DNA of 64,000 nucleotides from Ignavibacteria bacterium (GTDB taxonomy: Bacteria; Bacteroidota; Ignavibacteria; UBA10030; F1-140-MAGs086). The position numbers and the translations under genes are program-made. The notes beneath the pieces were generated by a model. It was not told where the DNA came from. It did no database searches and was given only the letters and a program-made list of their open reading frames with translations. The DNA is taken from the NCBI GenBank assembly GCA_016873775.1, contig VGWC01000002.1:4832-68831 (forward strand), given 5' to 3'. Positions 2,850 through 63,399 of the stretch are shown here, piece after piece. The stretch's first letter is position 1. Each line of letters starts with the position of its first letter.

Positions 2850-3583
2850 ACATCGCACTGATTGGCTACGGAAAAATGGGAAAAGAAATTGAATCGTTGT
2901 CAAAAGAACGCGGAACAGTTATCAAAAAAATTTTTACTCGAGAAAATAATAGCGCGGGAAAATCCCTGAACAAACAATCCTTAAAAGATATTGACCTCTG
3001 TTTCGAATTTTCTGCTCCCGACGAAGCGTATTACAATATTGAAGCGTTGATTGCGGCTAAAAAAAATATTGTGTGCGGAACAACAGGATGGTTTGACAAA
3101 ATTTCTTCCGTAAAAAAACTCGTAGAAGAACATCAGATCGGTTTTGTGTATTCTTCGAACTTCTCTCTGGGAATGAATATTTTTATTAGCACAGTTGAGC
3201 GCGCCGCTTCGCTTCTCAACCGTTTCAACGAATACGATGTAAGCATTCACGAAACACATCATGTTCGCAAACCGGATTCGCCTAGCGGAACAGCGTTTGC
3301 GCTCGCATCACTTCTTCTCCAAAATTTTCCACGCAAAACAGAAATCATCACGGAAACGGCTCACCAACAATTGCAACCGCATCAACTGCACGTTTCTTCA
3401 ACTCGCATCGGAAACGTCGTTGGACAACATACCGTCTTGTTTGATTCCGAAGTGGATTCGCTCGAATTAATTCACACAGCAAAAAATCGGCGCGGATTTG
3501 CATTAGGTGCAATTATCGCTGCCGAATGGCTGTATTACACTCAACAGAAAGGATTTTTTACGATGAAGGACGTTCTCGGATGA
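2846..3583 (+). CDS. dapB: 4-hydroxy-tetrahydrodipicolinate reductase
   Basis: MNIALIGYGKMGK is the Rossmann motif. HETHHVRKPDSPSGTAFALA is the DapB catalytic motif. The gene overlaps upstream pfkB and downstream dapA in ATGA fashion. Confidence 0.9.
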   Translation: MNIALIGYGKMGKEIESLSKERGTVIKKIFTRENNSAGKSLNKQSLKDIDLCFEFSAPDEAYYNIEALIAAKKNIVCGTTGWFDKISSVKKLVEEHQIGFVYSSNFSLGMNIFISTVERAASLLNRFNEYDVSIHETHHVRKPDSPSGTAFALASLLLQNFPRKTEIITETAHQQLQPHQLHVSSTRIGNVVGQHTVLFDSEVDSLELIHTAKNRRGFALGAIIAAEWLYYTQQKGFFTMKDVLG

Positions 3584-9767: not shown

Positions 9768-9969
9768 TGAAATTTGAAATTGGGATTTGAGTTTTCAGAT
9801 TTTCATTTGTACCTTCTCCGCAAAATTTATTGTAGAAAAATCAACGAAGGAAATTTACTATGAGGCAATTACATTTAACTATAATTGCAATTTCAATAAT
9901 AGCAATAATTACAATTCAATTTGCTTGCAAAGAAAAACCAACCGAAACTACTCAACTCGAAACAACAAT

Positions 9970-10824
9970 ATGAAAATCATTTCTTCAATTTCCGAAATGC
10001 AATCGCTTTCTGGATCGTTACGATTGAAAGAAAAGAAAATTGCTGTTGTTCCGACGATGGGCTCATTACACGAAGGTCATCTTTCGCTTATTCGCATCGC
10101 AAAACAAAACGCTGATATCGTTATCGCAACAATTTTCGTCAATCCCGTGCAATTCTCACCAAACGAAGATTTCAATAAATATCCGCGAAACATTGAACGA
10201 GATATTGCATTGATTCAAAAGGAAAATGCTGACGTTGTGTTCACTCCTTCACTTGAGGAAATCTATCCAAAGAATTTTGAAACGTATGTAACAACAGAAA
10301 AATCAAGCACCGTTCTCGAAGGAAAGTTTCGTCCGACACATTTCAAAGGTGTTACGACAATAGTTGCAAAACTTTTCAATATTACGAAACCGCACGTCGC
10401 AATCTTCGGACAAAAAGATGCACAGCAAGTTTTCATTATTCAAAAAATGATACGCGATTTGAATTTCGATATTCACATCGTTGTTGCGCCGATTGTTCGG
10501 GAACACGATGGACTTGCAATGAGTTCGCGCAATGTGTATTTGAATGTACAAGAACGAAATGATGCGACTGTTGTTTTTCAATCTCTTCAGTATGCGGAAC
10601 AATTAATTACAAACGGTGAATTCAATACTTTTTCTATAAAAAACGCAATGAAGAAAATGATTTCTTCAAAACGAACAGTAACAGAAATTGATTACATTTC
10701 GATTGCAAACGCAGAAACGCTGGATGAACTCGACATGATTCTTCTAAATAGTAAAACACTCATTTCACTCGCCGTTCGACTTGAGAATACTCGGCTCATT
10801 GATAATATTGTTATTGGGAATTAG
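9970..10824 (+). CDS. panC: Pantoate--beta-alanine ligase
   Basis: VPTMGSLHEGHLSLI is the HIGH-type motif with the conserved PanC start. The upstream 60 codons of the long ORF (from 9787) are low-complexity N/Y-rich and were rejected. Confidence 0.85.
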   Translation: MKIISSISEMQSLSGSLRLKEKKIAVVPTMGSLHEGHLSLIRIAKQNADIVIATIFVNPVQFSPNEDFNKYPRNIERDIALIQKENADVVFTPSLEEIYPKNFETYVTTEKSSTVLEGKFRPTHFKGVTTIVAKLFNITKPHVAIFGQKDAQQVFIIQKMIRDLNFDIHIVVAPIVREHDGLAMSSRNVYLNVQERNDATVVFQSLQYAEQLITNGEFNTFSIKNAMKKMISSKRTVTEIDYISIANAETLDELDMILLNSKTLISLAVRLENTRLIDNIVIGN

Positions 10825-10825
10825 T

Positions 10826-10890
10826 CATTTGTCATTCGTAACTTTACTAATGACAAATTACCAATGACGAATGACATGTATATTCAGGAA
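10826..10890. repeat. Palindromic intergenic element containing the 17-mer AATGACAAATTACCAAT
   Basis: The sequence is gtcatttgtcattcgtaactttactaatgacaaattaccaatgacgaatgacatg. The 17-mer is identical at 39011-39027 and has one mismatch at 59660-59676. Confidence 0.6.
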
Positions 10891-10913
10891 CTAAATTACG
10901 ATTCTAAATAAAC

Positions 10914-11672
10914 TTGAAACTCGAAACTCAGAACTCAAAACTTTGTGTAGCAATTCTCGCTGCGGGAAAAGGCAAGCGAATGTTGAATCCCGATAAAGCG
11001 AAAGTGATGTTCGAACTTAACGGCAAACCAATGCTGGGTTACGTTGTTGAAACCGCGCAACAACTTTCTCCGCAAAAAATTATTCTTATTGTCGGTTGGC
11101 AAAAAGATTCAGTGATTGAATATGTTTCTTCCATTCGAAAAGAAATAATTTTTGTTGAACAGAAAGAGCAACTTGGAACGGGACATGCAATAATGCAAAT
11201 TGAAAAAGCGCTGAATAATTTTGATGGAAACGTTCTCGTGCTTTCCGGCGATGTTCCTTTGCTTTCTATTTCCACATTGCAAATACTGCTTCAAACGCAT
11301 ATAAGAACAAATGCGATTGCAACAATTCTCGCTGCACAAATTGAAAATCCATTTGGTTACGGAAGAATAATTCACAATGAAAACGGAAGCGTGCAAAAAA
11401 TTGTAGAAGAAAAAGACGCGAACAATGAAGAAAAAAAAGTGAACGAAATAAATTCCGGAATTTATCTTTTCAATAAAGAATACTTGTTTGATGCTTTGAA
11501 AGAAATTACTCCGAATAATTCACAGCAAGAATATTATCTCACCGATGTGTTTCATTATTTTTGGAAACACAATTTGAAAGTTGCTGCAGTGAGAGCAAAT
11601 AATCCGAAAGAAATTCTGGGCGTAAATAACGTTGACGATTTGAAACAACTCGAACTATTGATGCGGGGATAA
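10914..11672 (+). CDS. Sugar-phosphate nucleotidyltransferase (GlmU N-terminal-like)
   Basis: LAAGKGKRM matches the nucleotidyltransferase GxGxR(M/L) motif, and the fold continues with VVGW, LGTGHA and LSGDVPLL. The TTG start lies inside a heptamer repeat, so the true start is uncertain. Confidence 0.6.
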   Translation: MKLETQNSKLCVAILAAGKGKRMLNPDKAKVMFELNGKPMLGYVVETAQQLSPQKIILIVGWQKDSVIEYVSSIRKEIIFVEQKEQLGTGHAIMQIEKALNNFDGNVLVLSGDVPLLSISTLQILLQTHIRTNAIATILAAQIENPFGYGRIIHNENGSVQKIVEEKDANNEEKKVNEINSGIYLFNKEYLFDALKEITPNNSQQEYYLTDVFHYFWKHNLKVAAVRANNPKEILGVNNVDDLKQLELLMRG

Positions 11673-14509: not shown

Positions 14510-14722
14510 AAAAGTTGAACGATGTGAATACATTCTTGGTGGTTATTCTGCATTTCAAATGAAACACATTTTATTGATTCTCAAAAAAAATAATTTCTAT
14601 ACTTTCACGTAATTTTTTGAATTCAGTATTTTATGAAAGATAATATTCTATATCGTATGGGCTTGTTCGCTTAACTATATCAGTGGTAGTTATTCCGAAT
14701 CACATTGTGTTCTATGAATAGT

Positions 14723-15184
14723 TCAATTTAAATTTCTTAAAAAGTCTTTCAGCAATATGAAACTCCTGAATATTTTCGTACAACATCCCAACACCCAACC
14801 GGGAATTTCTTGTAAAGACATTTCTGAAATGAGATAGACTGGTTTCCCAAAATATTTTGCAAGCGTAAGTTCACCTTTTGTTCCCGCACCTTTTGCTGCG
14901 CTTTCATCCCAATAGCAAATTACATAATCACTTCGCTTTACAATTTCCTCGCAATCAATTTCAACAAGTTCACGAACAATTTCCGTATAACGTTCGATGT
15001 TGTCAAATTTCAGTTTGCGGAAATCTACGTTGTTGTATTTTGTTGCAAACAGTTCTTTGCTTTTTTCTGTCGGATTGAAAACTTCGTGATGTAATTCTTG
15101 TTCGAGAAATCGTTGCAGTTCTTCTCGCCAATCGCCACCATCGTTAGTAGCGTATTCCATTCCGCCGGAGAGATACACATTCAT
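14723..15184 (-). CDS. YtoQ / nucleoside 2-deoxyribosyltransferase-like (SLOG/LOG superfamily) protein
   Basis: N-terminal VYLSGGMEY...DWREE matches the YtoQ-type YLAGEIH..WRE pattern. GAGTKGELTLAKYFGKPVYLI parallels the LOG PGGxGTxEEL...KPV.LL motif. The gene is isolated between two roughly 200-bp non-coding regions. Confidence 0.5.
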   Translation of the reverse strand: MNVYLSGGMEYATNDGGDWREELQRFLEQELHHEVFNPTEKSKELFATKYNNVDFRKLKFDNIERYTEIVRELVEIDCEEIVKRSDYVICYWDESAAKGAGTKGELTLAKYFGKPVYLISEMSLQEIPGWVLGCCTKIFRSFILLKDFLRNLN

Positions 15185-15382
15185 AGTTGTTTGTTATTCG
15201 TTAATAGTAATTTGTTATTTGATGTTTCTATTTTCTAACCGCAGAGTTCACAAAGTTTATCGCAAAGTCCACGAAGTAAAATTTTTATCTCTGCGAAACT
15301 TTGCGCCAAACTCTGCGTTACTTCGCGGTTAAATACACACATTGAATACTTTCAATTAACTATTAACTAATAACAGATAACT

Positions 15383-16933
15383 TTATTCATTCGTCACAGA
15401 AATAAATTCTCTCTCAATCGTATGAACAATTTCCTTCAATGTTTCAATATCGAAAGAAATATCTCTATCCTTATCAACGAATGGAATGCCAAGCCCGTTA
15501 CGAATCATTTCGAAAAAGTTTTTCGTTCCTTCACCAAGTTGCGCTTTCGGATTTTGTCGCAAACGAAAATCAATCGCTTGACACGAGCAGAGAATTTCAA
15601 TCGCAATAATGTATTCAACATTGGAAACAACTTCTGCCGCGTGGCGTGCAGCAATTGTTCCCATCGAGTTGTGGTCTTCCTGATTCGCAGAAGTCGGAAT
15701 TGAATCACCGCTTGCGGGATGAATGAGAACTTTGTTTTCGGAAACGAGGGAAGCAGCAGTATATTGCGCAATCATCAAACCGGATTGAACGCCGCCATCA
15801 ACACACAGAAACGCAGGTAAACCGTTATTATGATTTTTGTCGAGAAGTTTTGCAATGCGACGTTCGGAAATATTTCCAAGTTCGGCAATTGCAAGTTTTA
15901 AGAAATCTAATGCAAGTGCGAGCGGTTGTCCGTGAAAATTTCCTGCGCTGACAACTTCATTTTCATCAGCAAAAATATGCGGATTATCGGTAACGGAATT
16001 AAGTTCGATTTCGATGATTGCTTGCACATACGAAAGCGCATCGAACGTTGCTCCGTGAACTTGAGGAATACATCGCAGCGAATACGAGTCTTGAATTTTA
16101 TCGTTCGTGTCGTCATCAACGCAATCGAGCAATGAACTTCCGCTTGTAAATTCCCGAATCATATTCGCAACAAATTGCTGTCCAACATACGGACGAAGTT
16201 TTTGCACATTTGACTGAAACGGAGAACTCTTTCCTTTCAATGCTTCAAGCGATAACGATGCAGCGACGTTTGCTAACTTAAAAAGATTTTTTGCATCGCC
16301 AAGTGCAAGCGTTCCGACTGCGAGCATTGCTTGTGTTCCATTCAACAACGCAAGCCCTTCTTTCGCTTGAAGTATGAGCGGCGGAATTTTCATTTGCTCC
16401 AACGCTTCTTTTCCCGTTACAACTTCGCCATATTCACCGATTGCAGCCCAACCTTCGCCAATCATTACCGAAGCGATATGCGAAAGCGGAGCCAAATCTC
16501 CACTAGAACCAACAGAACCTTTCGACGGGACAACGGGATGAACTTGTTTATTCAACATTGCGAGCAGCATTTCGACAACTTCAACACGTACACCGGAATA
16601 TCCCGCCGCAAGCGCATTCGCTCGAAGCAATATCATCGCGCGTACAACTTCATCGGGAAATGGTTCGCCAACTCCCGCGCAATGACTCAACACAAGATTC
16701 CGCTGTAATTCCTCAACTTGATTTTGTTGCAAACGAACATTTTGAAATGCGCCGAACCCCGTCGTAACTCCATACACGCTTTTATTTTGCTTCACTGCAT
16801 CTTCAATCCATTTTCGAGAAGCAAGCATTTTCTTTTTTGCAGATGGAGAAAGCGTTACTTCCTGAAAATTTCTTGCAACGGAGAAAATATTTTCGATGGT
16901 GAGTGATGTGCCGGTGAGTTCGAGTGGAGACAT
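15383..16933 (-). CDS. hutH: Histidine ammonia-lyase
   Basis: GSVGSSGDLAPLSH is the MIO-forming triad region, here Ser-Ser-Gly. LSHCAGVG carries the Ser-His selectivity pair of HALs. TGFG is at the N-terminus. Length is 516 aa. Confidence 0.85.
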   Translation of the reverse strand: MSPLELTGTSLTIENIFSVARNFQEVTLSPSAKKKMLASRKWIEDAVKQNKSVYGVTTGFGAFQNVRLQQNQVEELQRNLVLSHCAGVGEPFPDEVVRAMILLRANALAAGYSGVRVEVVEMLLAMLNKQVHPVVPSKGSVGSSGDLAPLSHIASVMIGEGWAAIGEYGEVVTGKEALEQMKIPPLILQAKEGLALLNGTQAMLAVGTLALGDAKNLFKLANVAASLSLEALKGKSSPFQSNVQKLRPYVGQQFVANMIREFTSGSSLLDCVDDDTNDKIQDSYSLRCIPQVHGATFDALSYVQAIIEIELNSVTDNPHIFADENEVVSAGNFHGQPLALALDFLKLAIAELGNISERRIAKLLDKNHNNGLPAFLCVDGGVQSGLMIAQYTAASLVSENKVLIHPASGDSIPTSANQEDHNSMGTIAARHAAEVVSNVEYIIAIEILCSCQAIDFRLRQNPKAQLGEGTKNFFEMIRNGLGIPFVDKDRDISFDIETLKEIVHTIEREFISVTNE

Positions 16934-16992: not shown

Positions 16993-17087
16993 GAAAATAG
17001 AATACAGATGTCACGGATTTTGCTAATGTTCACTGATTCCTTTATCTTCGAATAATCTGTTGTATCAGCGTCATCCGTGTTCTATTT
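16993..17087. repeat. Inverted-repeat (MITE-like) element, AAATAGAACAC..GATGA family
   Basis: The left arm is aaaatagaatacagatgtcacggatttt and the right arm is atcagcgtcatccgtgttctattt, which is its reverse complement. Sibling copies are at 48124-48217 and 59559-59655. Confidence 0.6.
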
Positions 17088-17181: not shown

Positions 17182-18603
17182 TTATTTCAACAATGATTGA
17201 ATTGAAGAAAGAAGTTGAGGACGAGAAACAACAACTTGCGCTTGCTTTGTCGCTTTGATGTATTCTTCTTTGTTCGATGCATCAACATTTTTTCCAGCTC
17301 GTAAATCTTTTAACGTAACTTCGTTCTTTTCAAATTCGTTTGAGCCGATAATAACGGCAAGCGGAATTTGCATTTTGTTGGCGTATTGCAATTGCTTCCC
17401 CAATCCTTTTTCTTCTCCGAGATAAAGTTCCGTGTTAATACCGGCGCTGCGTAATTCACGGGTAAGTTGTTGGTAATCGAGCATTTTATCTTTTTCCATC
17501 ACTGTTACAAGCACATGCGCAGTGGAAGAAACAGTTTCAAGTCGCTCAAGTTTTTGTAACGCGGCAAGCAATCTATCAATTCCTGTTGATGCGCCAACTG
17601 CGGGAATATTTTTCCCGAGAAATCGCTGCACTAAATCGTCATAGCGTCCTCCTCCAAAAACAGAACCAAATTCCGGTGCATCGAGTAATATTGCTTCAAA
17701 CACAGGTCCGGTGTAATAATCTAATCCGCGAGCAAGAGAAAAATCAATCGTAATTTTTTCGTCGGAAAGTTTGAGCGCATCGAGAGAAGAACATATTTCT
17801 TTTAACTCGTTGATTCCTTCTTGTGCAGAAGATACATTGGTAAAGAGACGTTCAATGTTAACAAGCGATTCGTTTCTTGTCGCGTTTGGTAAATCAAGGA
17901 ACTGTTTTATTTTTGTAACGCTCTCATCATTTAGTCCAAGTCCACGAATGGTATCGCCCGACACATCAACTCTTCCTTCCGTTAATTCCAATGCAACTTC
18001 ATCGAAACTAATTTTATCGAGTTTATCAAGAATACGAAAAACATTTTTTCCTAATCCCTGAGGTACGTTCGCAAAATCTAAAAGTGCATTGAGTATTTTT
18101 CTATTGCTGAATCGCAGACGAAATCGCTCAATTCCCAAAGCAGAGAGAACATCGTACATCCCGCAAAGTATTTCAGTATCTGCCGCCATTGAAGAACTTC
18201 CAACTGTATCTAAATCAAATTGAATGAATTCTCGAAATCTTCCCGGGTCAGGTTTATCTGCTCTCCAAACTGGTGCAACATGATAGCGACGAAATGGTTT
18301 CGGTAATTCGGAATATTGAGATACTACGCGAGCGAGTGGGACAGTTAAATCGAATCGTAATGCAATGTCTTCTCCCTCTGGGATTTTTGAACGGAAAATA
18401 TTTTTAGATGTATCACCGTGCCCAACCAATGTTTCAACATATTCTAACGCCGGTGTATCAAGGGGAACAAATCCATATCGCTCAAAAACTGTTCGCACGG
18501 TTTCGATAATTTTTCTTCGTGCGATAACTGTTTCGGGAAGATAATCGCGCATTCCTTTAACAGTGCGAGGTTCGATTATTTTATTTTGGTTTTCGTTCGA
18601 CAT
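17182..18603 (-). CDS. hisS: Histidine--tRNA ligase
   Basis: VKGMRDYLPE is the class II aaRS motif, with GGRYD and the anticodon-binding C-terminus. The start is chosen at Met 18603 (MSNENQ...) because the further-upstream Mets lie in repeat DNA. Confidence 0.9.
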   Translation of the reverse strand: MSNENQNKIIEPRTVKGMRDYLPETVIARRKIIETVRTVFERYGFVPLDTPALEYVETLVGHGDTSKNIFRSKIPEGEDIALRFDLTVPLARVVSQYSELPKPFRRYHVAPVWRADKPDPGRFREFIQFDLDTVGSSSMAADTEILCGMYDVLSALGIERFRLRFSNRKILNALLDFANVPQGLGKNVFRILDKLDKISFDEVALELTEGRVDVSGDTIRGLGLNDESVTKIKQFLDLPNATRNESLVNIERLFTNVSSAQEGINELKEICSSLDALKLSDEKITIDFSLARGLDYYTGPVFEAILLDAPEFGSVFGGGRYDDLVQRFLGKNIPAVGASTGIDRLLAALQKLERLETVSSTAHVLVTVMEKDKMLDYQQLTRELRSAGINTELYLGEEKGLGKQLQYANKMQIPLAVIIGSNEFEKNEVTLKDLRAGKNVDASNKEEYIKATKQAQVVVSRPQLLSSIQSLLK

Positions 18604-18652
18604 AAAATAGAATTTTACATTTGACATTTTATATTTTAGATTGAAACAAAAT

Positions 18653-18674
18653 TGTAAAATGTTCAATATAAAAT
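18653..18674 (-). promoter_or_regulatory. 22-nt motif TGTAAAATGTTCAATATAAAAT in the hisS leader, with an exact second copy at 21963-21984
   Basis: Exact 22-mer duplicate seen directly. On the coding (minus) strand it reads ATTTTATATTGAACATTTTACA, followed 40-50 nt later by ATCTAAAAT.TAAAAT and then the ATG. Confidence 0.5.
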
Positions 18675-18730
18675 GTAAAAAAAAATGTCGGTTTCGAACT
18701 CACCTAGAGACGACAACTGACACTTGAAAG

Positions 18731-20206: not shown

Positions 20207-21901
20207 TCACGCTTTTCCCCTCTTCCCTTGCTCTTCCACCGTAAAAATCCACGCGGCAAGTTTTCCTGGCTCAATTGAATTGAAATCGTTCCAATAACTT
20301 TTTCTACGGAAGTACCGAGAACTTGTTTCTTCTACAGAAATTTTTTCGGCTTCGGCAATTATTATGTTCATTCGCGATTTCCATTTTTCCATATTCGCTA
20401 CACGCAAATCAACCCAACCATCGCGCGACCACGTTGCAATTTTTTCGGAAGAAATTTTCAATTCATTCTCGCCAAGAAACGCAGGAATTTTTATTTCCTT
20501 TCCACGCAACAATGTTTTTCCATCGGGCATTAAAATAGGAATGCCGACAGAAATAATTTGCGAGCGTAGTGATTTGTTCTTTGCAATTTCATTCGATAAT
20601 TGTTTTGAAAGTATGTTCGCATTCGCTTTCATCACTGATCTCATTGACAAAAAACATTTCTTTAACAAATATGCTTCAAACAATAGTTTTGAAAGTCGCG
20701 GCGGACCAAGAATTTCAAACGCTATACTCTCAACGTTGTGTTTCTTTTCCAACTCTTCCAATTTTTGAATTGCACTGTTCCACATAAATCCCGCGCGATA
20801 CGTTGGGTCAAGCACAGCATTATCGAGCGCGTTCACAATATCGTGTCCTGTGTTTCCGCCTTTTATTTCCATCACAACAGCATCGGCTATTTCTTCCGGC
20901 GTAACATATTCCATTTGCCCCGCAGTGGAAATTGCTTCGAATTCATTTTTAGAAAACAATCCGTTCTCTCCCGTATCAATGAATACCGATTTCATCGGCT
21001 GATTCAATTCAATACCGATTTTTTCATCGCGAATTTTTATTATCTCTTTCAGTTGAAATCCATTCTTCGGCGGACAATCAACAAGTGAAATTACTTTACC
21101 GCGTTTTTTTATTTCTCCGTACGAAATTTTTTTCCACGCAATCGCCGCCGTCGGTTTTATCTCTTTGATAATCGGAGCATCAGGAGTTCTTCCCATCAAA
21201 AACAACAACATCGTATGCGCGCCGGCAACAGAAGATTTTGAAAGCAACACGCGCGACGGACGTTCTTCGCTATGCGTGTACGGGATGTTGAGCCCCATTC
21301 CTCCTGTTCCACTCGTTCCGATTTTCACATAAATTTTTGTTTGCAGAAGTTGCATCGAACGATATAATAATTGCACGTGGCGAATAAGTTGCGGCGTGTA
21401 TTGTGTGCAGAGCAATCGTTCGATTTTTTCTTTTACGTTTCCGTTTTGTTTATCCAACGCTTGCAACACATCGCGCGAACTTTGAAAAATATCTTGATAC
21501 GCAATTCCCGTTGCAGAGTTCACGCAATCAACAACAATCGACGGTTTGAATTTTTTCAGAAGTTGATACACCGATGATTGCTCCAGAACCGTTGAAGTCA
21601 TTTCATTGAGAATATCGTCAATCAACGTTCTGCGATATTTTTCGTTGGAAAGAATTTCTTCGCGCGGCAAATCTTTGAATGCATTGCGCACAAAAATATT
21701 TCCCCACCACGATTGAAACATTTCTTTTTTCAACTTCGGATATTCTTTGCGAAGTTGCGTAACTGCATCATCCGTTTCTTCTTTTTTCAGCGAAGTGATG
21801 ATAACTTTTTTCGGTTGCTCTTCAAGAATACGATGACAAACTGCGGAGCCAACCAATCCCCAGCCGCCAATTACTAATACTGTTTGACCTTTGATGTTCA
21901 T
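20207..21901 (-). CDS. Uncharacterised 564-aa protein with an N-terminal NAD(P)-binding Rossmann fold
   Basis: GQTVLVIGGWGLVGSAV is a GxxGxxG Rossmann motif. The remaining 480 aa carry no motif I recognise. Confidence 0.5.
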   Translation of the reverse strand: MNIKGQTVLVIGGWGLVGSAVCHRILEEQPKKVIITSLKKEETDDAVTQLRKEYPKLKKEMFQSWWGNIFVRNAFKDLPREEILSNEKYRRTLIDDILNEMTSTVLEQSSVYQLLKKFKPSIVVDCVNSATGIAYQDIFQSSRDVLQALDKQNGNVKEKIERLLCTQYTPQLIRHVQLLYRSMQLLQTKIYVKIGTSGTGGMGLNIPYTHSEERPSRVLLSKSSVAGAHTMLLFLMGRTPDAPIIKEIKPTAAIAWKKISYGEIKKRGKVISLVDCPPKNGFQLKEIIKIRDEKIGIELNQPMKSVFIDTGENGLFSKNEFEAISTAGQMEYVTPEEIADAVVMEIKGGNTGHDIVNALDNAVLDPTYRAGFMWNSAIQKLEELEKKHNVESIAFEILGPPRLSKLLFEAYLLKKCFLSMRSVMKANANILSKQLSNEIAKNKSLRSQIISVGIPILMPDGKTLLRGKEIKIPAFLGENELKISSEKIATWSRDGWVDLRVANMEKWKSRMNIIIAEAEKISVEETSSRYFRRKSYWNDFNSIEPGKLAAWIFTVEEQGKRGKA

Positions 21902-21962
21902 TTTATTTTACATTTTAGATTTCACATTGAACATTTATTGTTACATCTCTCATTTAAAAAAA

Positions 21963-22013
21963 TGTAAAATGTTCAATATAAAATTACAATAATCTCAATA
22001 ATTCCAAGTGAAA
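21963..22013. promoter_or_regulatory. Composite of two recurring motifs: 22-mer TGTAAAATGTTCAATATAAAAT plus 27-mer CAATAATCTCAATAATTCCAAGTGAAA
   Basis: Both motifs recur elsewhere: the 22-mer at 18653, and the 27-mer family at 27949 and 29956. The composite lies upstream of the minus-strand gene 20207-21901 and just 3' of era. Confidence 0.5.
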
Positions 22014-24814: not shown

Positions 24815-24932
24815 TAAAAATGCGAGGAAAAGATAGGGAAAAGTCGAATGATTTTAGATTTACATTTTAGATTTCTGATTGAAAAAGTTTCTTTGCTTTC
24901 GTATCTTATGCATATAAAATTTTATCTCACGT

Positions 24933-27912: not shown

Positions 27913-27948
27913 ACTTGTTCTCACTACATTGTAGCTGCATTGCAATTT

Positions 27949-27974
27949 CAATAATACCAATTATTCCAAGTGAA
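27949..27974 (+). promoter_or_regulatory. 27-nt motif CAATAATACCAATTATTCCAAGTGAA overlapping the recQ start
   Basis: Member of the CAATAATnnCAAT(A/T)AT..CAAGTGAA family, also at 21987-22013 and 29956-29984. The recQ GTG start codon lies within the motif. Confidence 0.5.
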
Positions 27975-29757: not shown

Positions 29758-29955
29758 ATCATGTTTCACTTGTTATTATTGAAATTATTGAAGTTCTCAT
29801 TACGAGAATGTTTTGCAAAAAGCACAAAGGGTGTCATTTTGAAGAACGAACCGACGAAAAATCTTCTTTCATCTTGCAATATTTCAGAGTAGATTCCTCA
29901 CTTCGTTCGGAATGACAATTTTTTTTTATTTTGTAAAACTTTCTAAAAATAAATT

Positions 29956-29984
29956 CCAATAATCTCAATAATATCAAGTGAAAG
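29956..29984 (+). promoter_or_regulatory. 27-nt motif CCAATAATCTCAATAATATCAAGTGAAAG upstream of the CoA-transferase gene
   Basis: It shares the 16-mer CAATAATCTCAATAAT exactly with the copy at 21987. Confidence 0.5.
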
Positions 29985-47012: not shown

Positions 47013-48101
47013 TTATTTTCCCGATTCTGCTTTCAATTCTGCTGTTCGCTTTCGTTCGGCAATCGTCAAAAACCAAACTGCGACGAGAATGAAACCGAGT
47101 GATACCCAATCTTGCAACTTCGGGAATTTAGCGCCGAATATAATCGCTGAAAGGAGTGTGGCGGTTGTCCCTGCAACAAGTGATGTAAGTCGATTTACTA
47201 ATCCCGCAAACGTTGCCGTTCTGCCTTTGAACATAAACAGGAACACAGAAAAGAATGCGACGAGACCGAATGCTGTTCCACTCATCACCCCAAAACTCCA
47301 TAACGAATTTGCAACATCAAACGAATTTTTAAATAATATGACTTGGGGAACATCCCATCCAAATGATTGCGAACCAAAATAAACTAAAAATGAAATTGAA
47401 AGAATAAAAATGAATGCAAATATTTGTTCGATTCCAAAAAATCCGTGATTGTCAAGTGGAACTCCTTTCGCTCGTGTATTTTTGAAATAGTTCATTATAT
47501 AAATGCGAATCAAATACGCAATTATGTAACTCGATAAAATACCGACAGCGGCTGTATTATTGAGAAAATCGAAATCACCCGCTTGCACAAAAACTAAATT
47601 TACTCCCGCCGCAAGCAATGCAAACACCACTGCAAAATTTTCTTCTTTGTACACTTTCTTTTTTAAAATTCCTTGCGCAATTTGCACGGCATCAACGCTT
47701 CTACTGATAACGATTACGCTTGCTCGCATAATCACCATCGCAACCATTACTGACATTCCTTCAAACGTGTACATCAATGTTGTTGTCGGAATAACAATCG
47801 CCGTCATCAAACCGGAAGGAAGAATGTATTTTATTTCTTCAGGAAGAGAAAGTCCCGCAACAGAAATCATATTATTCGATTTCAATCTATACCAACGCAT
47901 CGCAATTACAATGCCAAGCGCAGTAATCATTCCGCCAATCGTGTTATACACCATATATTCGATTTGGTTGAAATGGAGTGAACTTGCGATGTGTTGGTCG
48001 GTAAAAAGTTTTGCGCTGATTCCCGTAATGACGTAAAAAATAAAATAGCCAACACAGAGTTGAATCAATCGCGCAGTACTTCCTTCTTCAGTTTTCCACA
48101 T
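47013..48101 (-). CDS. Hypothetical polytopic membrane protein (about 10 TM)
   Basis: Hydrophobic segments throughout and no recognisable motif. Confidence 0.45.
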   Translation of the reverse strand: MWKTEEGSTARLIQLCVGYFIFYVITGISAKLFTDQHIASSLHFNQIEYMVYNTIGGMITALGIVIAMRWYRLKSNNMISVAGLSLPEEIKYILPSGLMTAIVIPTTTLMYTFEGMSVMVAMVIMRASVIVISRSVDAVQIAQGILKKKVYKEENFAVVFALLAAGVNLVFVQAGDFDFLNNTAAVGILSSYIIAYLIRIYIMNYFKNTRAKGVPLDNHGFFGIEQIFAFIFILSISFLVYFGSQSFGWDVPQVILFKNSFDVANSLWSFGVMSGTAFGLVAFFSVFLFMFKGRTATFAGLVNRLTSLVAGTTATLLSAIIFGAKFPKLQDWVSLGFILVAVWFLTIAERKRTAELKAESGK

Positions 48102-48123: not shown

Positions 48124-48217
48124 AAAATAGAACACTGATGAAACGGATTTGACCGATGTACACTGATTTTTTTTATCAGTGAAAATCTGTTTCATCAGTG
48201 TCATCTGTGTTCTATTT
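48124..48217. repeat. Inverted-repeat (MITE-like) element with a nested hairpin
   Basis: The left arm is aaaatagaacactgatgaaacggattt. The right arm is aaatctgtttcatcagtgtcatctgtgttctattt, with an internal 9-nt duplication. The central sub-hairpin is cactgat-T8-atcagtg. Confidence 0.65.
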
Positions 48218-48241: not shown

Positions 48242-48952
48242 TTACTTTTTCATCGTCCAAAGTTTTGTAGTCGCTCGTTCTAATTCTTGTGCAATCAAAT
48301 TTTTGTCAAGCGTTTTTTCCGGTTCGTTTTCAAACACAGCGTACGGAACGTTGAATCCTTTCACTTCGATGTAATCCGGATTTTTTGCCGCTATTTTTTC
48401 CCAATCATTTATCTTGTAATAAAAATCCATTTTCTCATCGGGAAGCGAATGATACAAAATGGAATCTTCCATTCCGGGTTTTGCGCGGCGACGATTTTTT
48501 CTCACCGATTCTTCATACGAAACTTTGATGTAGAGCAATGTCGCGCGTTTCAAAATATCTTCGTGTAAATAATTCAACGCTTCGTTGATTCCGTTTTCTC
48601 CCCCGCGCGCAAACTCAATGAGTGTCGTCATTTTCTCGTGATAGTTTGGATTACGCGCAAGTTTTTTTCTGTATTCCAAATTGATGCGCTCGATGTATAA
48701 ATTCCAAATAAACCCATCTTTAAACCAATATTTTTCATCGCTCCAAACACGTGGCTTTTTATGTCGAGAAAGAATATCGTCTATCTCGAATGTTTCCCAA
48801 ACATACACGAAATCATCAAGTTCTTCAAAATCGGAAATGTGAAATTGCTGCAAACGTTCATCTGTATTTGTGTGTTTGAGAAAATCAATGACTTCGGATT
48901 TTCCAGCGGCTGGCCTTCCGGTAATAATGAGAATAGGAAAGTTGTTTTGCAC
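48242..48952 (-). CDS. P-loop kinase, PPK2-like (polyphosphate kinase 2 family-like); assignment uncertain
   Basis: ILIITGRPAAGKS is Walker A. The region LLYIKVSYEESVRKNRRRAKP resembles the PPK2 region FLHISKEEQ..R. Confidence 0.35.
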   Translation of the reverse strand: MQNNFPILIITGRPAAGKSEVIDFLKHTNTDERLQQFHISDFEELDDFVYVWETFEIDDILSRHKKPRVWSDEKYWFKDGFIWNLYIERINLEYRKKLARNPNYHEKMTTLIEFARGGENGINEALNYLHEDILKRATLLYIKVSYEESVRKNRRRAKPGMEDSILYHSLPDEKMDFYYKINDWEKIAAKNPDYIEVKGFNVPYAVFENEPEKTLDKNLIAQELERATTKLWTMKK

Positions 48953-58203: not shown

Positions 58204-59541
58204 CTAAATTTTATTTTTCAAAATCTCCTGCGACACCTTTCCAAACACATCATAATGTTCCGCTTTCGTAATTGTAACATTATAAAAATTTCCAATTTGT
58301 AATTCTCGTTCGGAAGAAACATACACTTCTCCATCAACTTCTGGCGCATCACATTCACTTCTTCCAACATACGTACTTCCTGCGCCGCGTTCAATCAATA
58401 CTTTCACATTCTTTCCAATCTTTTCAGAATTTTTTTTCAACGAAATTTTTTGCTGCAGTTCCATCAATCGAGAATAACGTTCGTCTTTTTCTTTTTCTGA
58501 AATCACATCGCCAAACGGAAATGCTGTCGTATCATCTTCTTGCGAATATTTGAAAACGCCAACTCTATCAAATTCCATTTCTTCTACAAAATTGAGTAAA
58601 GTGCGAAAATCATTTTCAGTTTCATTCGGATAGCCAACAATGAATGTCGTTCGCATAGTAATGTTTGGAACAACCGAACGAATATGCGAAATCAATTCCC
58701 GCAAGGTACGATTAGTAATTCCGCGCCGCATTGATTTCAAAACTTCATCTGCCGCGTGTTGAATCGGCATATCGAGATACTTGCATATTTTTTTATTCGT
58801 CGCAATTTCTTCCAAAATATCGCGCGGAAATTTTGTCGGGTACGCATACAATAATCGAATCCACTCAATTCCGTTCACTCGCGAAAGATTTTGAAGTAGT
58901 GATTTCAATTCACGCGAATTTGACATATCCAAACCGTAGTAGGTTGTATCTTGCGCAATAATATTCAATTCTTTCACTCCTTGCGAAACGAGATGTTCCG
59001 CTTCATGCAGCAATTCATCCATCGGTTTGGAGATATGTTTTCCGCGCATAATCGGAATAGCGCAAAACGAACAAGGGTTATCACAACCTTCAGAAATTTT
59101 TAAGAATGCAGAAAACGTCGGTGTAAGCAAAACTCTCTCACCGAGTAATTCATATTTCAAATCTCCGCCAAGCGCGTGAACAATTTTTCCGATTTCTGAA
59201 ATCGTTCCGAAAAATCCATCTACTCCTGGAATTTCTTTTTGCAAATCACTTTTATATCGCTCGGATAAACACCCCATCACGAAAACTTTTTCCAACGCGC
59301 CCTTCGATTTTTTTTCTACTGCTTCGAGAATCGTGTTCACCGATTCTACTTTCGCGGGACCAATAAATCCACAAGTGTTAATAACAACAACAGAAGCATC
59401 GTTGTAACCTTTTGCGATTTGCATTTCATTCGAGCCGATTTGCCGAAGCAATTGTTCGCTATCAACTAAATTCTTCGCACAACCAAGCGAGTGAACGAAA
59501 ATGGAATTGCTTTTTCCGTTATGTTTTGTTTTGATTTTCAA
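58204..59541 (-). CDS. rimO: Ribosomal protein S12 methylthiotransferase RimO
   Basis: N-terminal MTTase domain (SLGCAKNLVDSE), a radical-SAM CxxxCxxC (CDNPCSFC) and a C-terminal TRAM. Length is 445 aa. Confidence 0.8.
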   Translation of the reverse strand: MKIKTKHNGKSNSIFVHSLGCAKNLVDSEQLLRQIGSNEMQIAKGYNDASVVVINTCGFIGPAKVESVNTILEAVEKKSKGALEKVFVMGCLSERYKSDLQKEIPGVDGFFGTISEIGKIVHALGGDLKYELLGERVLLTPTFSAFLKISEGCDNPCSFCAIPIMRGKHISKPMDELLHEAEHLVSQGVKELNIIAQDTTYYGLDMSNSRELKSLLQNLSRVNGIEWIRLLYAYPTKFPRDILEEIATNKKICKYLDMPIQHAADEVLKSMRRGITNRTLRELISHIRSVVPNITMRTTFIVGYPNETENDFRTLLNFVEEMEFDRVGVFKYSQEDDTTAFPFGDVISEKEKDERYSRLMELQQKISLKKNSEKIGKNVKVLIERGAGSTYVGRSECDAPEVDGEVYVSSERELQIGNFYNVTITKAEHYDVFGKVSQEILKNKI

Positions 59542-59558: not shown

Positions 59559-59655
59559 ATAGAACACTGATGACGCTGATTAAACAGATGTTCACAGATT
59601 ATTATCCGTGATAATCAGTCACATCAGTGTAATCCGTGTTCTATTTTAAATTTCA
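59559..59655. repeat. Inverted-repeat (MITE-like) element
   Basis: The left arm is aatagaacactgatgacgctgat. The right arm is atcagtcacatcagtgtaatccgtgttctatttt. The central sub-hairpin is gattatta-tccgtg-ataatc. Confidence 0.6.
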
Positions 59656-59664
59656 AACGAATGA

Positions 59665-60468
59665 CTAATTACCAATTACAAACTTAAAATACATATACAC
59701 CATAGGAGCGACAAAAAGCAAACTATCAAATCTATCCAACACCCCTCCGTGTCCGGGAATTATTGTTGATGAATCCTTTATGTTTGCATCACGTTTCAAC
59801 AGCGATTCAAATAAATCTCCGAGTTGTCCAAAAACTCCTACAAATACCGAAAGCATTATCAATTCATTCAAAGAATAATTGTGGAGAATAGTATTGTAAA
59901 GTGCAAACACTGACATTATTGCTCCAAGAAATCCAGCTATCGCTCCTTCCCACGTTTTCTTCGGTGAAACTCGTAGAAACAATTTATGCTTTCCAAATGC
60001 TCTGCCTCCAAAATATGCAGCAGAATCGCAAATCCAGATTGAAATAAAAATAGCAATGACAAGTTCTGCATTTTGCATTTCACGCAATGCAAGCAATGTT
60101 CCAAAACTTCCTGCGATGTAAATAATTCCGAAAAATGTTGTTGCAAGATTTTGAATCGGGTTTTCTTTGTTGCGAAATAATTCTACAATGAAAATGAAAA
60201 ACGAAAACGAAAAAATGAAAAATGGAAGTTTCGTGAATAAGAATAATTCCTTAAAGAACATTACCAATAAAATTATTCCGAGAATAACTCCTAAAACTTT
60301 TTGCGGATGAGTTCCTTTCGCTTCTGCAAGTTTGTAATATTCTAACATTCCAAGAACAGTAAGCACGACAACGAACAAAAAGAAAACCCAATCTCCTTGA
60401 TACGTGATGAAGAAAATTGCAGGAATTGCAACAAGCGCAACGAGTGTACGAGAAGTTAAATTACTCAA
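59665..60468 (-). CDS. cdsA: Phosphatidate cytidylyltransferase
   Basis: SPKKTWEGAIAGF and IPGHGGVLDRFDS are the CdsA signature. Confidence 0.85.
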   Translation of the reverse strand: MSNLTSRTLVALVAIPAIFFITYQGDWVFFLFVVVLTVLGMLEYYKLAEAKGTHPQKVLGVILGIILLVMFFKELFLFTKLPFFIFSFSFFIFIVELFRNKENPIQNLATTFFGIIYIAGSFGTLLALREMQNAELVIAIFISIWICDSAAYFGGRAFGKHKLFLRVSPKKTWEGAIAGFLGAIMSVFALYNTILHNYSLNELIMLSVFVGVFGQLGDLFESLLKRDANIKDSSTIIPGHGGVLDRFDSLLFVAPMVYMYFKFVIGN

Positions 60469-61391: not shown

Positions 61392-61522
61392 TTAATCTTG
61401 GAAAGTACAATCTATAATTCTCTGCGCAAATCTGTGAAATCTGCGGGAGAATGTTTCCCGCAGATTACGCAGATGAACGCAGAAGAATTCTTGAAATGCT
61501 AATAACAAATAACGAATAACAA

Positions 61523-62515
61523 TTAACTATTCACTTTCAACTTAATCATCGCCGCAAGCAACGGAATCATAATCTCATGATGACCTACAAAATAAAATCC
61601 TCTTCCAGTTCCCTGCGTTGGACGAAGCATTACATTTTGCGTCGGACGATAATGCAAATTCATATCGAAGACAGCAGTTGTAAATCCTTGCGCTTTGTAT
61701 CCAAGATTTCGAGCGACCGTTAATGCTTTCAAAAATACTTCGGGAAGAATAACAGCAGAACCGATATTCAAAACTACTCCGCCGTTTTTCAAATCTTTCA
61801 CTACGTTCGCAAAAATTTTAAAATCGCGAAAACTCATCTCCCCAGTTGCCGCTCCGTCCATCGTCGGTTGCTGATGAATAATATCCGTTCCAATCGCGGC
61901 GTGAATTGTAATAGGAATATTTTTTTTCAAACACGCAACGAGAACACTTTGCGAAATGAATTTCGCTTTACGTTTTACAAGTTCATTTGCCAATGCTTCT
62001 CCGTAACCACACTCACTTTCTTTAAAATGTTTCTTCAATGTTTTATTGATAAACTCTCCCGTTTCTTTTGACATTCCAAACGTTCCATCGAGAAGATTCA
62101 CTGCAACGTCTTCGGAAGTATTTCCAAACAACGCAGTTTCGCTATCGTGAATTGCCGCCGCGCTATTCATTGCAATTCCGGTAATGATGTTTCGCTCAAT
62201 CAAATCAATAATAATCGGCGACAAACCAACTTTGATAACGTGCGCACCGAGCATCAAAATCACCGGCATTTTCTTCTTTCGTGATGAAATAATATCGTCA
62301 ATCAAAGTTCGCAAATCGTTTGCAACCAAAATATGCGGAAGTGATTCGGTAAATTGTGAAAACGAATTTTCTATTTCATTGTACACCTTTGCAAAATCAC
62401 TTGGCTGCACTTTGCTTTTCCGATTTGCAATTGAAATCGTTTTGATTTTTGAAAGTGAAATTTGTTTGTATTTGGATTTTTGTTTTTTCATTTTCTCTAT
62501 AGTTACAAGTTGCAA
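61523..62515 (-). CDS. Deoxyhypusine synthase-like family protein
   Basis: GAHVIKVGLSPIIIDLIERNIITGIAMNSAAAIHD parallels the DHS NAD/spermidine-binding core. Confidence 0.45.
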   Translation of the reverse strand: MQLVTIEKMKKQKSKYKQISLSKIKTISIANRKSKVQPSDFAKVYNEIENSFSQFTESLPHILVANDLRTLIDDIISSRKKKMPVILMLGAHVIKVGLSPIIIDLIERNIITGIAMNSAAAIHDSETALFGNTSEDVAVNLLDGTFGMSKETGEFINKTLKKHFKESECGYGEALANELVKRKAKFISQSVLVACLKKNIPITIHAAIGTDIIHQQPTMDGAATGEMSFRDFKIFANVVKDLKNGGVVLNIGSAVILPEVFLKALTVARNLGYKAQGFTTAVFDMNLHYRPTQNVMLRPTQGTGRGFYFVGHHEIMIPLLAAMIKLKVNS

Positions 62516-62562
62516 GTTACGGGTTACGAGTATAAAACTTGAAACTTGTAACTCAAAACTCG
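62503..62562. repeat. Palindromic array of 7-bp tandem repeats
   Basis: GTTACAA GTTGCAA GTTACGG GTTACGA GTATAAAACTTG AAACTTG TAACTCA AAACTCG TAAC lies between two minus-strand genes. Similar heptamer arrays are at 10913-10941 and 63352-63382. Confidence 0.6.
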
Positions 62563-62568
62563 TAACTT

Positions 62569-63399
62569 TTATTTCTTTGCTTTCATTGGATTTTTTATTC
62601 CGCCATATTGCTGCAATTCTGCAACAATCGCACCGACAATTATTTTCGAAGACATTTTCACAGGAATTTTATTTTCGTCGTCTGAGAGCCAAATTGTCAT
62701 ATTGCCTGTATTCTTAAATAATCCACCTTTCCGAATAAATGGCTGAATTTTCAAAGCGCGAAATTCTCCAGCACCGACATCTACTTCTTCTGTTCCAAAA
62801 TACTTTATGTCGAGCGCGTACGTTGAGTCTTTGTAAAAATTTTGCAAGTGAATTTCATCATTCGGTCTCAATGCAGTAAAATCAACCGTGCGGCAATAAT
62901 AAAAAGCGGAAACAATATCATGAACATAATCTGGAATTTTTATATACTCGATATCATTGCTCACTATTGTTTGGGCGAAATGATTTCGTTGGTCAAATTC
63001 TGCAACAAAATCACGGCGATAATTTCCCTCGCGAATATGCTGTTCAAACTTCCACGGAAAAATTCCCTGCACATCCACAAATGTAAAATACGAATCGCGC
63101 ACTGTATAAATCCAATCGAATCCTTTTGCAGAGCGAACTTTCACGGCAATTTTGTAACACTGTCGTTCATTCAATAATTCAATCGAAGGAATTTCCATTG
63201 TTGCAACGCCAGCAGTAATAAATCCGTAATCAATATCGAAGACAAGTTTTTCGCCAAGTGTGAATGCGTTATTTTTTTGAGTACGAAAAACGAATATGGA
63301 ATCAGATTGAGAAAAAGAATCAATTGGAATAAACAGAAAATAAATGTACAAGAATACAAATCGTAATTCATAATTCGTAATTCGTAATTTATCTACCAT
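62569..63399 (-). CDS. DUF3108-domain protein, secreted
   Basis: Signal peptide and GEKLVFDIDYGFITAGVATMEI, the DUF3108 N-terminal pattern. The first 13 codons are encoded by a heptamer tandem repeat. Confidence 0.5.
   Translation of the reverse strand: MVDKLRITNYELRFVFLYIYFLFIPIDSFSQSDSIFVFRTQKNNAFTLGEKLVFDIDYGFITAGVATMEIPSIELLNERQCYKIAVKVRSAKGFDWIYTVRDSYFTFVDVQGIFPWKFEQHIREGNYRRDFVAEFDQRNHFAQTIVSNDIEYIKIPDYVHDIVSAFYYCRTVDFTALRPNDEIHLQNFYKDSTYALDIKYFGTEEVDVGAGEFRALKIQPFIRKGGLFKNTGNMTIWLSDDENKIPVKMSSKIIVGAIVAELQQYGGIKNPMKAKK

Follow-up and report, generated by a model that had tools for sequence, protein, structure and literature searches.

Two described kinds of prokaryotic repeats are the closest counterparts of the elements considered here. 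In the system of REPINs (doublets of repetitive extragenic palindromic, REP, sequences) and REP-associated tyrosine transposases (RAYTs), palindromic doublets are dispersed between genes, mostly downstream of them, one small gene lies between inverted repeats, no target-site duplication is made, and the non-coding copies far outnumber the gene. Bacterial miniature inverted-repeat transposable elements (MITEs) derived from DDE transposons, such as Correia, RUP, Nezha and the IS630-type elements, are non-coding, about 90 bp long, multi-copy, intergenic and foldable into a hairpin, and their terminal inverted repeats are common to a coding parent. We analyzed a stretch of 64,000 nt (hereinafter the window, within which positions are numbered) of contig VGWC01000002.1 from an Ignavibacteria bacterium, which contains three near-palindromes of 84-87 bp that resemble both; their closest counterpart in logic is REPIN-RAYT, and in form, the MITEs. 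We assign them to a known kind, the non-autonomous inverted-repeat elements with a coding parent. The window elements are homologous to the arms that flank genes of the GxxExxY family, arms and gene constitute one unit across phyla, and the hairpins are gene-less, MITE- or REPIN-like versions of that unit. Thus, the window elements are probably non-coding hairpin derivatives of a tiny mobile unit that consists of an arm, a GxxExxY nuclease gene and a second arm.

The three window copies (Table 1) have the common ends TAGAAYAC-N-GAT...ATC-N-GTGTTCTA, usually preceded by AA and trailed by TT. Over their whole length, the mean column identity is 78% (63-83% pairwise), and each copy reads as an imperfect palindrome from end to end, its two arms (42-48 nt) being 76-77% complementary. 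The 16-mer AAATAGAACACNGATG occurs six times in the window with at most one mismatch, always inside these elements, the 8-mer GTGTTCTA occurs six times compared to about one expected, and a hidden Markov model (HMM) of 242 arms detects exactly six arms in the window, with E-values from 1e-6 to 1e-11. In copy 2, the focus of this analysis, the left arm consists of the terminus TAGAAC and the boxes ACTGAT, ACGGAT, CCGATG (degenerate) and ACTGAT at a spacing of 9-10 bp, and the right arm carries the mirror-image boxes ATCAGT, ATCTGT, ATCAGT and ATCTGT, followed by GTTCTA; the inverted repeat is further extended by AA (48126-48127) and TT (48215-48216). Copy 1, with the left tip TAGAATAC and only 44% arm-to-arm identity in its inner part, is the most decayed of the three. 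Because the window copies are no more alike than stated above and their arms are mismatched, they are probably old and inert, being merely co-transcribed with hisS/hutH, cdsA/rimO and the third gene pair.

An earlier examination of these letters (hereinafter the sequence-only reading) had proposed a family of three dispersed inverted-repeat copies, which are indeed present, alike along their whole length and backed by 16-mer, 8-mer and arm-HMM counts that exceed chance. The three sites were correctly located, the third interval (59559-59655) extending about 10 nt too far to the right. Of the near-identical terminal arms and the different internal hairpins that it described, the former stand, whereas the interior consists of more ACNGAT boxes of the same kind. 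Its degenerate half-site at 14690-14712 does not hold up, given that it rests on a lone 8-mer GTGTTCTA, which chance alone should yield about once, and that the arm HMM yields no match there even at E<=100. The sequence at this site contains TAGAACAC on the minus strand, with CACTGAT about 30 nt further in and off register, and may be either a chance occurrence or a very decayed solo arm.

The consensus of the arms is (A)A-T[A/G]GAAC-[A/G]C-N-GAT, followed by two or three more ACNGAT-type boxes every 9-10 bp, that is, about one helical turn; arms of the window type comprise TAGAAC-AC-N-GAT and three more ACNGAT boxes at 9, 9 and 10 bp. The opposite arm is the mirror image of the first, and a short A/T loop joins the two. 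Therefore, where the gene is absent and the arms abut, the element looks like a long imperfect palindrome. Across the 242 arms, the box letters A, C, G, A and T are 85-100% conserved, the middle N is most often G, then A, then T, and the spacers of 3-4 nt are essentially free; in the boxes of the window copies, the unconstrained N is A or T in about 60% of the cases, in this AT-rich genome. In some lineages, all inner boxes are jointly switched to CCAGGAT, CATGAT or ACGAAT, with the terminus kept (L043, L074, L077, L109).

A scan of GTDB, with each species represented by one genome, for the pattern TAGAAYACNGAT-N50-80-ATCNGTRTTCTA, which specifies 22 bases, returned at least 120 loci. At least 124 copies with the same ends and box architecture are found in these loci, which represent at least 15 bacterial phyla as well as Methanoperedens/Methanosarcinales archaea. 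The hosts among the matches listed include Bacteroidota, Ignavibacteriota, Chloroflexota, Planctomycetota, Gammaproteobacteria (Methylobacter), Patescibacteria, Firmicutes, Gemmatimonadota, Calditrichota, KSB1, Nitrospira, Acidobacteriota, Zixibacteria and Cloacimonadota, and many of the listed loci lie inside single genomes (CAZKEX01, JAUVLO01); the element is also carried by cultured organisms, such as Arcicella aurantiaca DSM 22214 and Fodinibius salsisoli. Methanoperedens/Methanosarcinales assemblies, which come from independent studies and include that of strain BLZ2, account for 23 of the loci among the matches listed. The archaeal host is supported at one locus by an isoleucyl-tRNA synthetase of archaeal type, as read from its sequence, and at another, on the contig of a Methanosarcinales metagenome-assembled genome (MAG), by a trpCBA operon in which the best-scoring model for TrpC is of haloarchaeal type. 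The gene-less version is 74-104 bp long outside the window. A scan of viral contigs with the hairpin pattern gave 0 matches and hence no sign of phage carriage.

When all open reading frames of the listed loci were clustered, GxxExxY proteins (about 130 aa) emerged as the only small family common to several phyla. The partner protein, of about 125 aa, matches Pfam PF13366 (PDDEXK_3; E 3e-41) and NCBIfam TIGR04256 ('GxxExxY protein'), both with a function-unknown annotation. Such genes are located directly between the arms at L095, L097 and L081, and at L041, on a Methanosarcinales MAG contig by trpCBA, the GxxExxY protein is 59% identical to one from Bacteroidia. The association was also tested from the protein side, with 80 GxxExxY loci chosen from metagenomes by protein similarity alone. 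Arms are present within 250 nt at 59 of these loci (a '+' arm upstream at 50, an arm downstream at 51, both at 42), and the strict terminus pattern occurs on both sides in 45 of 76, with 0.04 expected per interval searched. Most of the 21 HMM-negative loci have variant arms, with TAGAACGC termini and GCNGAT or TATGAT boxes, and more distant GxxExxY genes (56% and 43% identity) have divergent arms of their own that follow the same design.

The size of the unit is narrowly delimited. In about 1.3 Mb of loci, all 31 pairs of a '+' and a '-' arm located 150-4000 nt apart have an inter-arm gap of 200-600 nt, and 25 of these pairs hold an intact GxxExxY gene; the other six include one GxxExxY fragment and two short non-coding spans. 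Between the arms of these 31 pairs we detected no other cargo and no conventional transposase or DDE gene, and a larger autonomous element with the same ends, sought in the same 1.3 Mb, was not found. Complete units are 458-630 bp long, with a clean anatomy read in 16 units and in the loci P0100 and P0112, and the inner boxes of the right arm overlap the final codons of the GxxExxY gene. P0100 and P0112 are abundant proteins whose loci were reached by exact-sequence look-up. At P0100, the ATG directly follows the left arm, and one hairpin or an array of them lies past the stop codon; at P0112, the gene sits between cheD and cheB, enclosed by short inverted ends. Looking for the same protein in different contexts (P0100, P0112, P0016) yielded one context each.

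With respect to the protein itself, the catalytic E...D...ExK residues are invariant, and the match is above the curated profile cut-off. The AlphaFold model (predicted local distance difference test score, pLDDT, 86; predicted template modelling score, pTM, 0.80) shows a minimal PD-(D/E)XK core. A sequence search of the PDB found no relative; the comparison with PADLOC gave marginal Cas4-like matches only, and that with PHROGs gave none. The family is very large, with 15,889 clusters (50% identity) represented at E<=1e-3, and Methylobacter and Bacteroidota have GxxExxY proteins in common at 72-78% identity. Some proteins of 250-270 aa are fusions that contain two GxxExxY domains (P0361-P0365, P0372 and others). 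In Saprospiraceae and Bacteroidales (L121-L130, L232-L239), a GxxExxY unit is located between genes for a 1081-aa SNF2-PLD helicase and an MmeI-like methyltransferase, in a defense-island-like operon where its position is the same in both groups; an MmeI-like methyltransferase gene also adjoins rimO in relatives of the window organism (L224-L226).

The boundaries of the elements are sharply defined. Of 120 listed copies, 114 have A at position -1 and 85 at position -2, while 109 have T at position +1 and 87 at position +2; farther out, the composition is that of the background. The search for target-site duplications, which the sequence-only reading had proposed, revealed no direct repeat of any length above the shuffled-partner control, either at boundary offsets 0-5 or at inward offsets. 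Where both terminal dinucleotides depart from TA, they read TG..CA in seven cases and TG..TG in none; therefore, the inverted repeat includes the TA, which is not duplicated. A long open frame is hit by 27% of the hairpins, compared to 85% of random intervals, and the neighbors of the hairpins are co-directional in 41, convergent in 20 and divergent in 9 cases, that is, positions downstream of genes are favored. The nuclease gene is co-oriented with its upstream neighbor in 55 of 66 loci and with both neighbors in 32 of 45, and there is often no room for a promoter between the arm and the GxxExxY ATG. This combination of co-orientation and missing promoter space suggests that the nuclease gene is expressed by read-through transcription.

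Evidence of insertion comes from presence and absence in relatives. In a relative with 89% HutH identity, the 97-nt spacer between hisS and hutH has no arms, and in one with 71% HutH identity, the two genes overlap and the element is absent; compared to the former, window copy 1 appears to be an insertion. In the hunt for empty sites, the relatives identified through HutH lack the element and have an unalignable spacer, those identified through RimO have a different gene order, and an exact RimO look-up returned no locus. Exact-protein matches of hutH and of the 362-aa gene were found on element-bearing contigs only, HutH in JGI metagenome 3300020221 and a Logan assembly. The RimO of the window, which comes from an Ignavibacteria MAG, has 100% identity to a protein listed at NCBI under 'Ignavibacteria bacterium'.

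Hairpins also form tandem arrays with a period of 84-121 bp, spacer included, and a copy number that differs between samples. Arrays of one to at least eight hairpins with a period of 84-96 bp adjoin GxxExxY genes in L121-L130 (about 2377-3006), L232-L234 (about 1877-2302) and L194 (1230-2000). In public gene sets, such arrays are mis-called as proteins of 67-209 aa. In Methanoperedens/Methanosarcinales, the hairpin is nested in a separate MITE of about 240 bp with the inverted ends CATKWGTCATCGGTTAAG and target duplications of 9-10 bp (loci in Table 1). This conventional MITE carries and amplifies the hairpin as a passenger; all copies of the outer MITE in hand hold the hairpin, and none serves as an empty version. 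Furthermore, hairpins of Methylobacter and its relatives (L008, L080, L089, L101, L106, L115) have common outer flanks (..ACTACTCAGC.. / ..GTGCTGAGTA), which suggests nesting in yet another repeat family.

Taken in this light, a mechanism can be outlined. The GxxExxY nuclease would bind as a multimer to the phased boxes of the two arms, pair the ends and cut at the outer edge, and in this way would itself mobilize elements of the window type. Gene-less copies, which keep the boxes, could then be mobilized in trans like MITEs and REPINs; alternatively, some of them might be relics of deletion in situ. The lack of a target-site duplication argues against a staggered reaction of the DDE type, and insertion could instead proceed through a non-staggered cut or through host repair. 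Given that the units lie downstream of genes and that the nuclease is co-oriented with the upstream gene, the unit is likely to live on read-through transcription. The broader proposition, that the GxxExxY nuclease is the mobilizing enzyme of a new class of transposable elements characterized by phased ACNGAT boxes, the absence of a target duplication, hairpin MITEs and moves between phyla and into archaea, is one that we put forward tentatively and with less than even confidence.

Several considerations weigh against the derivation of the window elements from a mobile nuclease unit. The activity of the nuclease, its binding to the boxes and its mobility are all predictions. We know of no hydrolytic PD-(D/E)XK enzyme that performs strand transfer by itself; the PD-(D/E)XK protein of Tn7, TnsA, acts only together with TnsB. 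There is no GxxExxY gene in the 64 kb of the window, the part of this genome that was inspected. The co-variation of arm class and protein is modest, with 45 of 59 nearest neighbors in agreement compared to 55% by chance, and simple linkage would produce the same. The loci were chosen by hairpin or by gene, and an autonomous partner of another kind might conceivably be present elsewhere in the genomes. The flanks in relatives are too diverged for an exact empty site to be recovered, so that insertion is deduced from presence and absence alone. Moreover, the arrays repeat the unit together with its spacer, and therefore part of the copy number results from local duplication rather than transposition.

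A portion of the same evidence fits a reading in which nothing but the gene-bearing unit ever moved: each hairpin would mark a former complete GxxExxY unit that lost the gene between its arms, much like a solo long terminal repeat, and would itself be immobile. Hairpins next to a gene-bearing unit have the arms of that unit (L194, L122), two loci of one Caldilineaceae genome (L017 and L040) have identical arms of 40 nt with different loops, as independent deletions would produce, and the tandem arrays come from local duplication. However, among the hairpin-selected loci, 160 compact elements stand against about six genes (roughly 25 to 1), which would require very frequent insertion and loss, and the window itself has three hairpins and zero genes. 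We regard deletion in situ as an unlikely explanation of the hairpins in general.

A role for the host has lower probability still. Here, the hairpin would be a dispersed small RNA, an mRNA-stabilizing structure or a bidirectional intrinsic terminator that is retained for its fold. Folding each of the window copies, as the sequence-only reading had proposed, gave stable structures for all three on either strand (-24 to -36 kcal/mol, z -3.4 to -6.7; copy 2, -35.8 kcal/mol, z -6.7; copy 3, -34.6 kcal/mol, z -6.6), the preference for positions downstream of genes (with the orientation counts given above) would suit such a function, and some lineages, such as Caldilineaceae, frame the hairpin with runs of A5-8 and T4-7 that resemble a bidirectional terminator. 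Against this, an alignment of 50 hairpins shows the full-palindrome structure paired in 78.6% of cells compared to 76.2% after partner shuffling, with a covariation score of 0.164 compared to 0.118, an excess that relatedness alone could generate, and no pair forms at the spacer columns or at the N of the boxes in 34-68% of the sequences. The same ends also flank a nuclease gene at a distance of 400 nt from each other. In the window, only three tRNAs reach the Rfam gathering threshold and the elements are unmatched, the search at a permissive E-value adding nothing other than sub-threshold hairpin matches to microRNA precursors, and a simple scan for consensus terminators does not call the full hairpins, which have an A/T-rich stem base and UAUUUU-like tails. 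What is conserved appears to be the inverted boxes, with the hairpin largely as their by-product. Conservation of boxes rather than of pairs thus favors recognition of phased double-stranded boxes by a protein over a selected RNA fold, and we consider the latter improbable, a secondary effect of the hairpin on operon transcripts being possible. The structured small RNA family suggested by the sequence-only reading is accordingly unsupported, with no Rfam match and pairing almost wholly explained by the conserved boxes.

Within an element, the arms are 0.65-0.69 identical, compared to 0.55-0.60 between elements. Strong homogenization of the arms through a panhandle intermediate was considered and set aside, this difference lending it modest support only. 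In one GxxExxY unit (L152, about 1010-1070 and the downstream arm), both arms hold the same 22-nt insertion CCAAAAGTAGGCGCCTCTAGGCG, a hint that one arm can act as the template for its partner.

The remaining alternatives concern the mobilizing enzyme or deny mobility altogether. MITEs of IS630 relatives look like TA-GAAC...GTTC-TA with A/T-rich flanks, as do the present elements, and a conventional MITE of IS630/Tc1-mariner type, with a duplicated TA target and a DDE transposase encoded elsewhere, would account for this appearance. Nevertheless, such an origin is very improbable, considering that no direct repeat exceeds shuffled partners, that TG..CA outnumbers TG..TG seven to zero, that positions -1 and +1, being A and T, are complementary rather than repeated, and that no arm pair in the approximately 1.3 Mb of loci encloses an insert of transposase size. 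Whereas DDE-derived MITEs duplicate their target and descend from a parent with a DDE transposase, the parent here is 0.46-0.6 kb long and without one, and the sub-terminal boxes are iterated. Of the general attributes of MITEs, the elements have the small size, the absence of coding capacity, the inverted repeats, the multiple copies at unrelated sites, with presence or absence between relatives, and the ends common with a coding element, and lack the target-site duplication; neither the TA duplication nor the DDE partner of the IS630/Tc1-mariner MITEs was found. Hence, the MITE or REP-like dispersed element envisaged by the sequence-only reading proved right in kind (short, non-coding, intergenic, multi-copy, with inverted repeats and a gene-bearing parent) and wrong if taken as a classical DDE-type MITE, given that the target site is not duplicated, the TA lies inside the inverted repeat and the partner is a PD-(D/E)XK nuclease.

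A REP/REPIN family moved by a RAYT, an IS200-like HUH tyrosine transposase, would have an analogous layout of dispersed inverted doublets and a small gene flanked by inverted repeats. REP sequences are confined to single species, and RAYTs are passed on by vertical descent. The termini analyzed here, in contrast, are common to several phyla and two domains (more than 15 phyla and archaea), the flanked gene encodes a PF13366/TIGR04256 PD-(D/E)XK protein rather than Y1_Tnp and is multi-copy and horizontally spread, the arms consist of three or four phased 6-bp boxes instead of a single REP hairpin, and no other cargo was found between the arm pairs, all of which makes this possibility hardly credible. 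Chance similarity, or the convergence of AT-rich terminators that the sequence-only reading had named as potentially fatal to the family, can be dismissed as having negligible probability: the genome is AT-rich and hairpins are common in intergenic DNA, but the 8-mer count of six compared to about one, arm-HMM E-values down to 1e-11 and a 22-base pattern recurring in at least 120 loci of unrelated genomes, with an identical terminus in more than 120 unrelated genomes among the matches listed, exclude such convergence.

Other mobile elements resemble the GxxExxY unit in part. Like IS200/IS605 elements and palindrome-associated transposable elements (PATEs), it is very small, makes no target-site duplication, occurs in bacteria and archaea and has non-autonomous hairpin derivatives; however, the IS200/IS605 ends are asymmetric sub-terminal hairpins read as single-stranded DNA by the HUH protein TnpA, whereas here the ends are mirror images and the enzyme has a predicted PD-(D/E)XK fold. 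Free-standing homing endonuclease genes, including those of the PD-(D/E)XK fold such as I-Ssp6803I, are likewise small selfish nuclease genes wedged between, and co-oriented with, host genes, but have a single cognate site and neither inverted arms nor gene-less copies, in contrast to the many unrelated insertion sites seen here. Several phased short motifs at each end, inverted between the ends, are also typical of Tn7 (the TnsB sites), Mu, hAT and IR/DR (inverted repeat/direct repeat) ends; those elements, unlike the present one, are kilobases long, encode DDE transposases and generate target duplications. Integron attC sites do not fit either, as the terminus ATAGAAC...GTTCTAT does not agree with RYYYAAC/GTTRRRY, and the window elements lie singly between housekeeping genes, where there is no integrase.

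Judged against Rfam and 8 million full texts, in which we found no description of an element with these terminal sequences or under the names GxxExxY, PF13366, PDDEXK_3 or TIGR04256, the mobile unit is apparently undescribed. The findings link a very large family annotated as of unknown function, PF13366/TIGR04256, with a defined DNA partner, a nuclease gene being accompanied by its own inverted arms. Should the proposed mobility be real, a function would be assigned to about 16,000 50%-identity clusters now annotated as 'unknown', and the unit of approximately 460 bp would be smaller than any other autonomous DNA element known from prokaryotes, setting a new lower size limit, with a new enzymatic route to transposition and a parasitism of host operon transcription. 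The identical ends from Ignavibacteria to Methanoperedens would mark DNA traffic between phyla and domains, and a small protein that reads phased 6-bp boxes could serve as a DNA-targeting module.

Table 1. Coordinates of the inverted-repeat elements and of other repeats, in window positions unless a locus is named
Feature	Position	Length	Strand	Setting or structure	Arm-HMM E-value
Copy 1	16998-17084	87 bp		between hisS (17182-18666, -) and hutH (15383-16933, -)	
Copy 2 (focus)	48128-48214	87 bp		gene-less; between 236-aa gene (48242-48952, -) and 362-aa gene (47013-48101, -)	
Copy 2, left arm	48128-48168		+		5e-10
Copy 2, right arm	48175-48214		-		1e-10
Copy 3	59560-59643	84 bp		between cdsA (59665-60468, -) and rimO (58204-59541, -)	
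Possible degenerate relative	61421-61487			ATCTGCG / CGCAGAT-box palindrome, perfect 10-bp inner stem	0.055 and 1.3 (weak)
Low-complexity repeats	10809-10876; 59657-59686; 15180-15219; 61501-61540; 10910-10944; 62535-62569			intergenic; one adjoins copy 3	
Short motif	9884-9919; 21977-22012; 27939-27974; 29947-29982	36-48 nt			
Longer block	18621-18687; 21899-21984; 24859-24894	~60 nt		direct and inverted; near a tRNA gene and gene starts	
Hairpin nested in separate MITE	loci L002, L014, L019, L041, L050, L051, L061, L066, L072, L084, L117	~240 bp (MITE)		Methanoperedens/Methanosarcinales	

As for the genes around the window copies, comparison with Pfam confirmed hisS/hutH and cdsA/rimO as named by the sequence-only reading; its 'PPK2-like' gene could not be upheld, the 236-aa protein having a sub-threshold P-loop match only, and the 362-aa protein has no Pfam match. 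Copy 3 fits tightly between its neighbors, 21 nt past the stop codon of cdsA and 18 nt ahead of the start of rimO. The 'GC-type' arms that surround other GxxExxY genes may have a decayed relative in the palindrome at 61421-61487, whose membership in the family is uncertain.

The window contains further repeats of other kinds (Table 1). Low-complexity intergenic repeats comprise GTCATTTGTCATTCGTAA-type palindromes, AATAACAAATAACGAATAAC tracts and AAACTTGAAACTCGAAACTC tracts. A block of about 60 nt (TTTACATTTTAGATTTC... / AAAATGTAAAATGTTCAATATAAAAT) recurs in both direct and inverted orientation. Finally, the short motif (ATTGCAATTTCAATAAT..CAATAATT.CAAGTGAA) is located, in three of its four copies, directly upstream of and overlapping the GTG starts of the open reading frames at 22008, 27970 and 29978, and may represent a shared promoter or leader.

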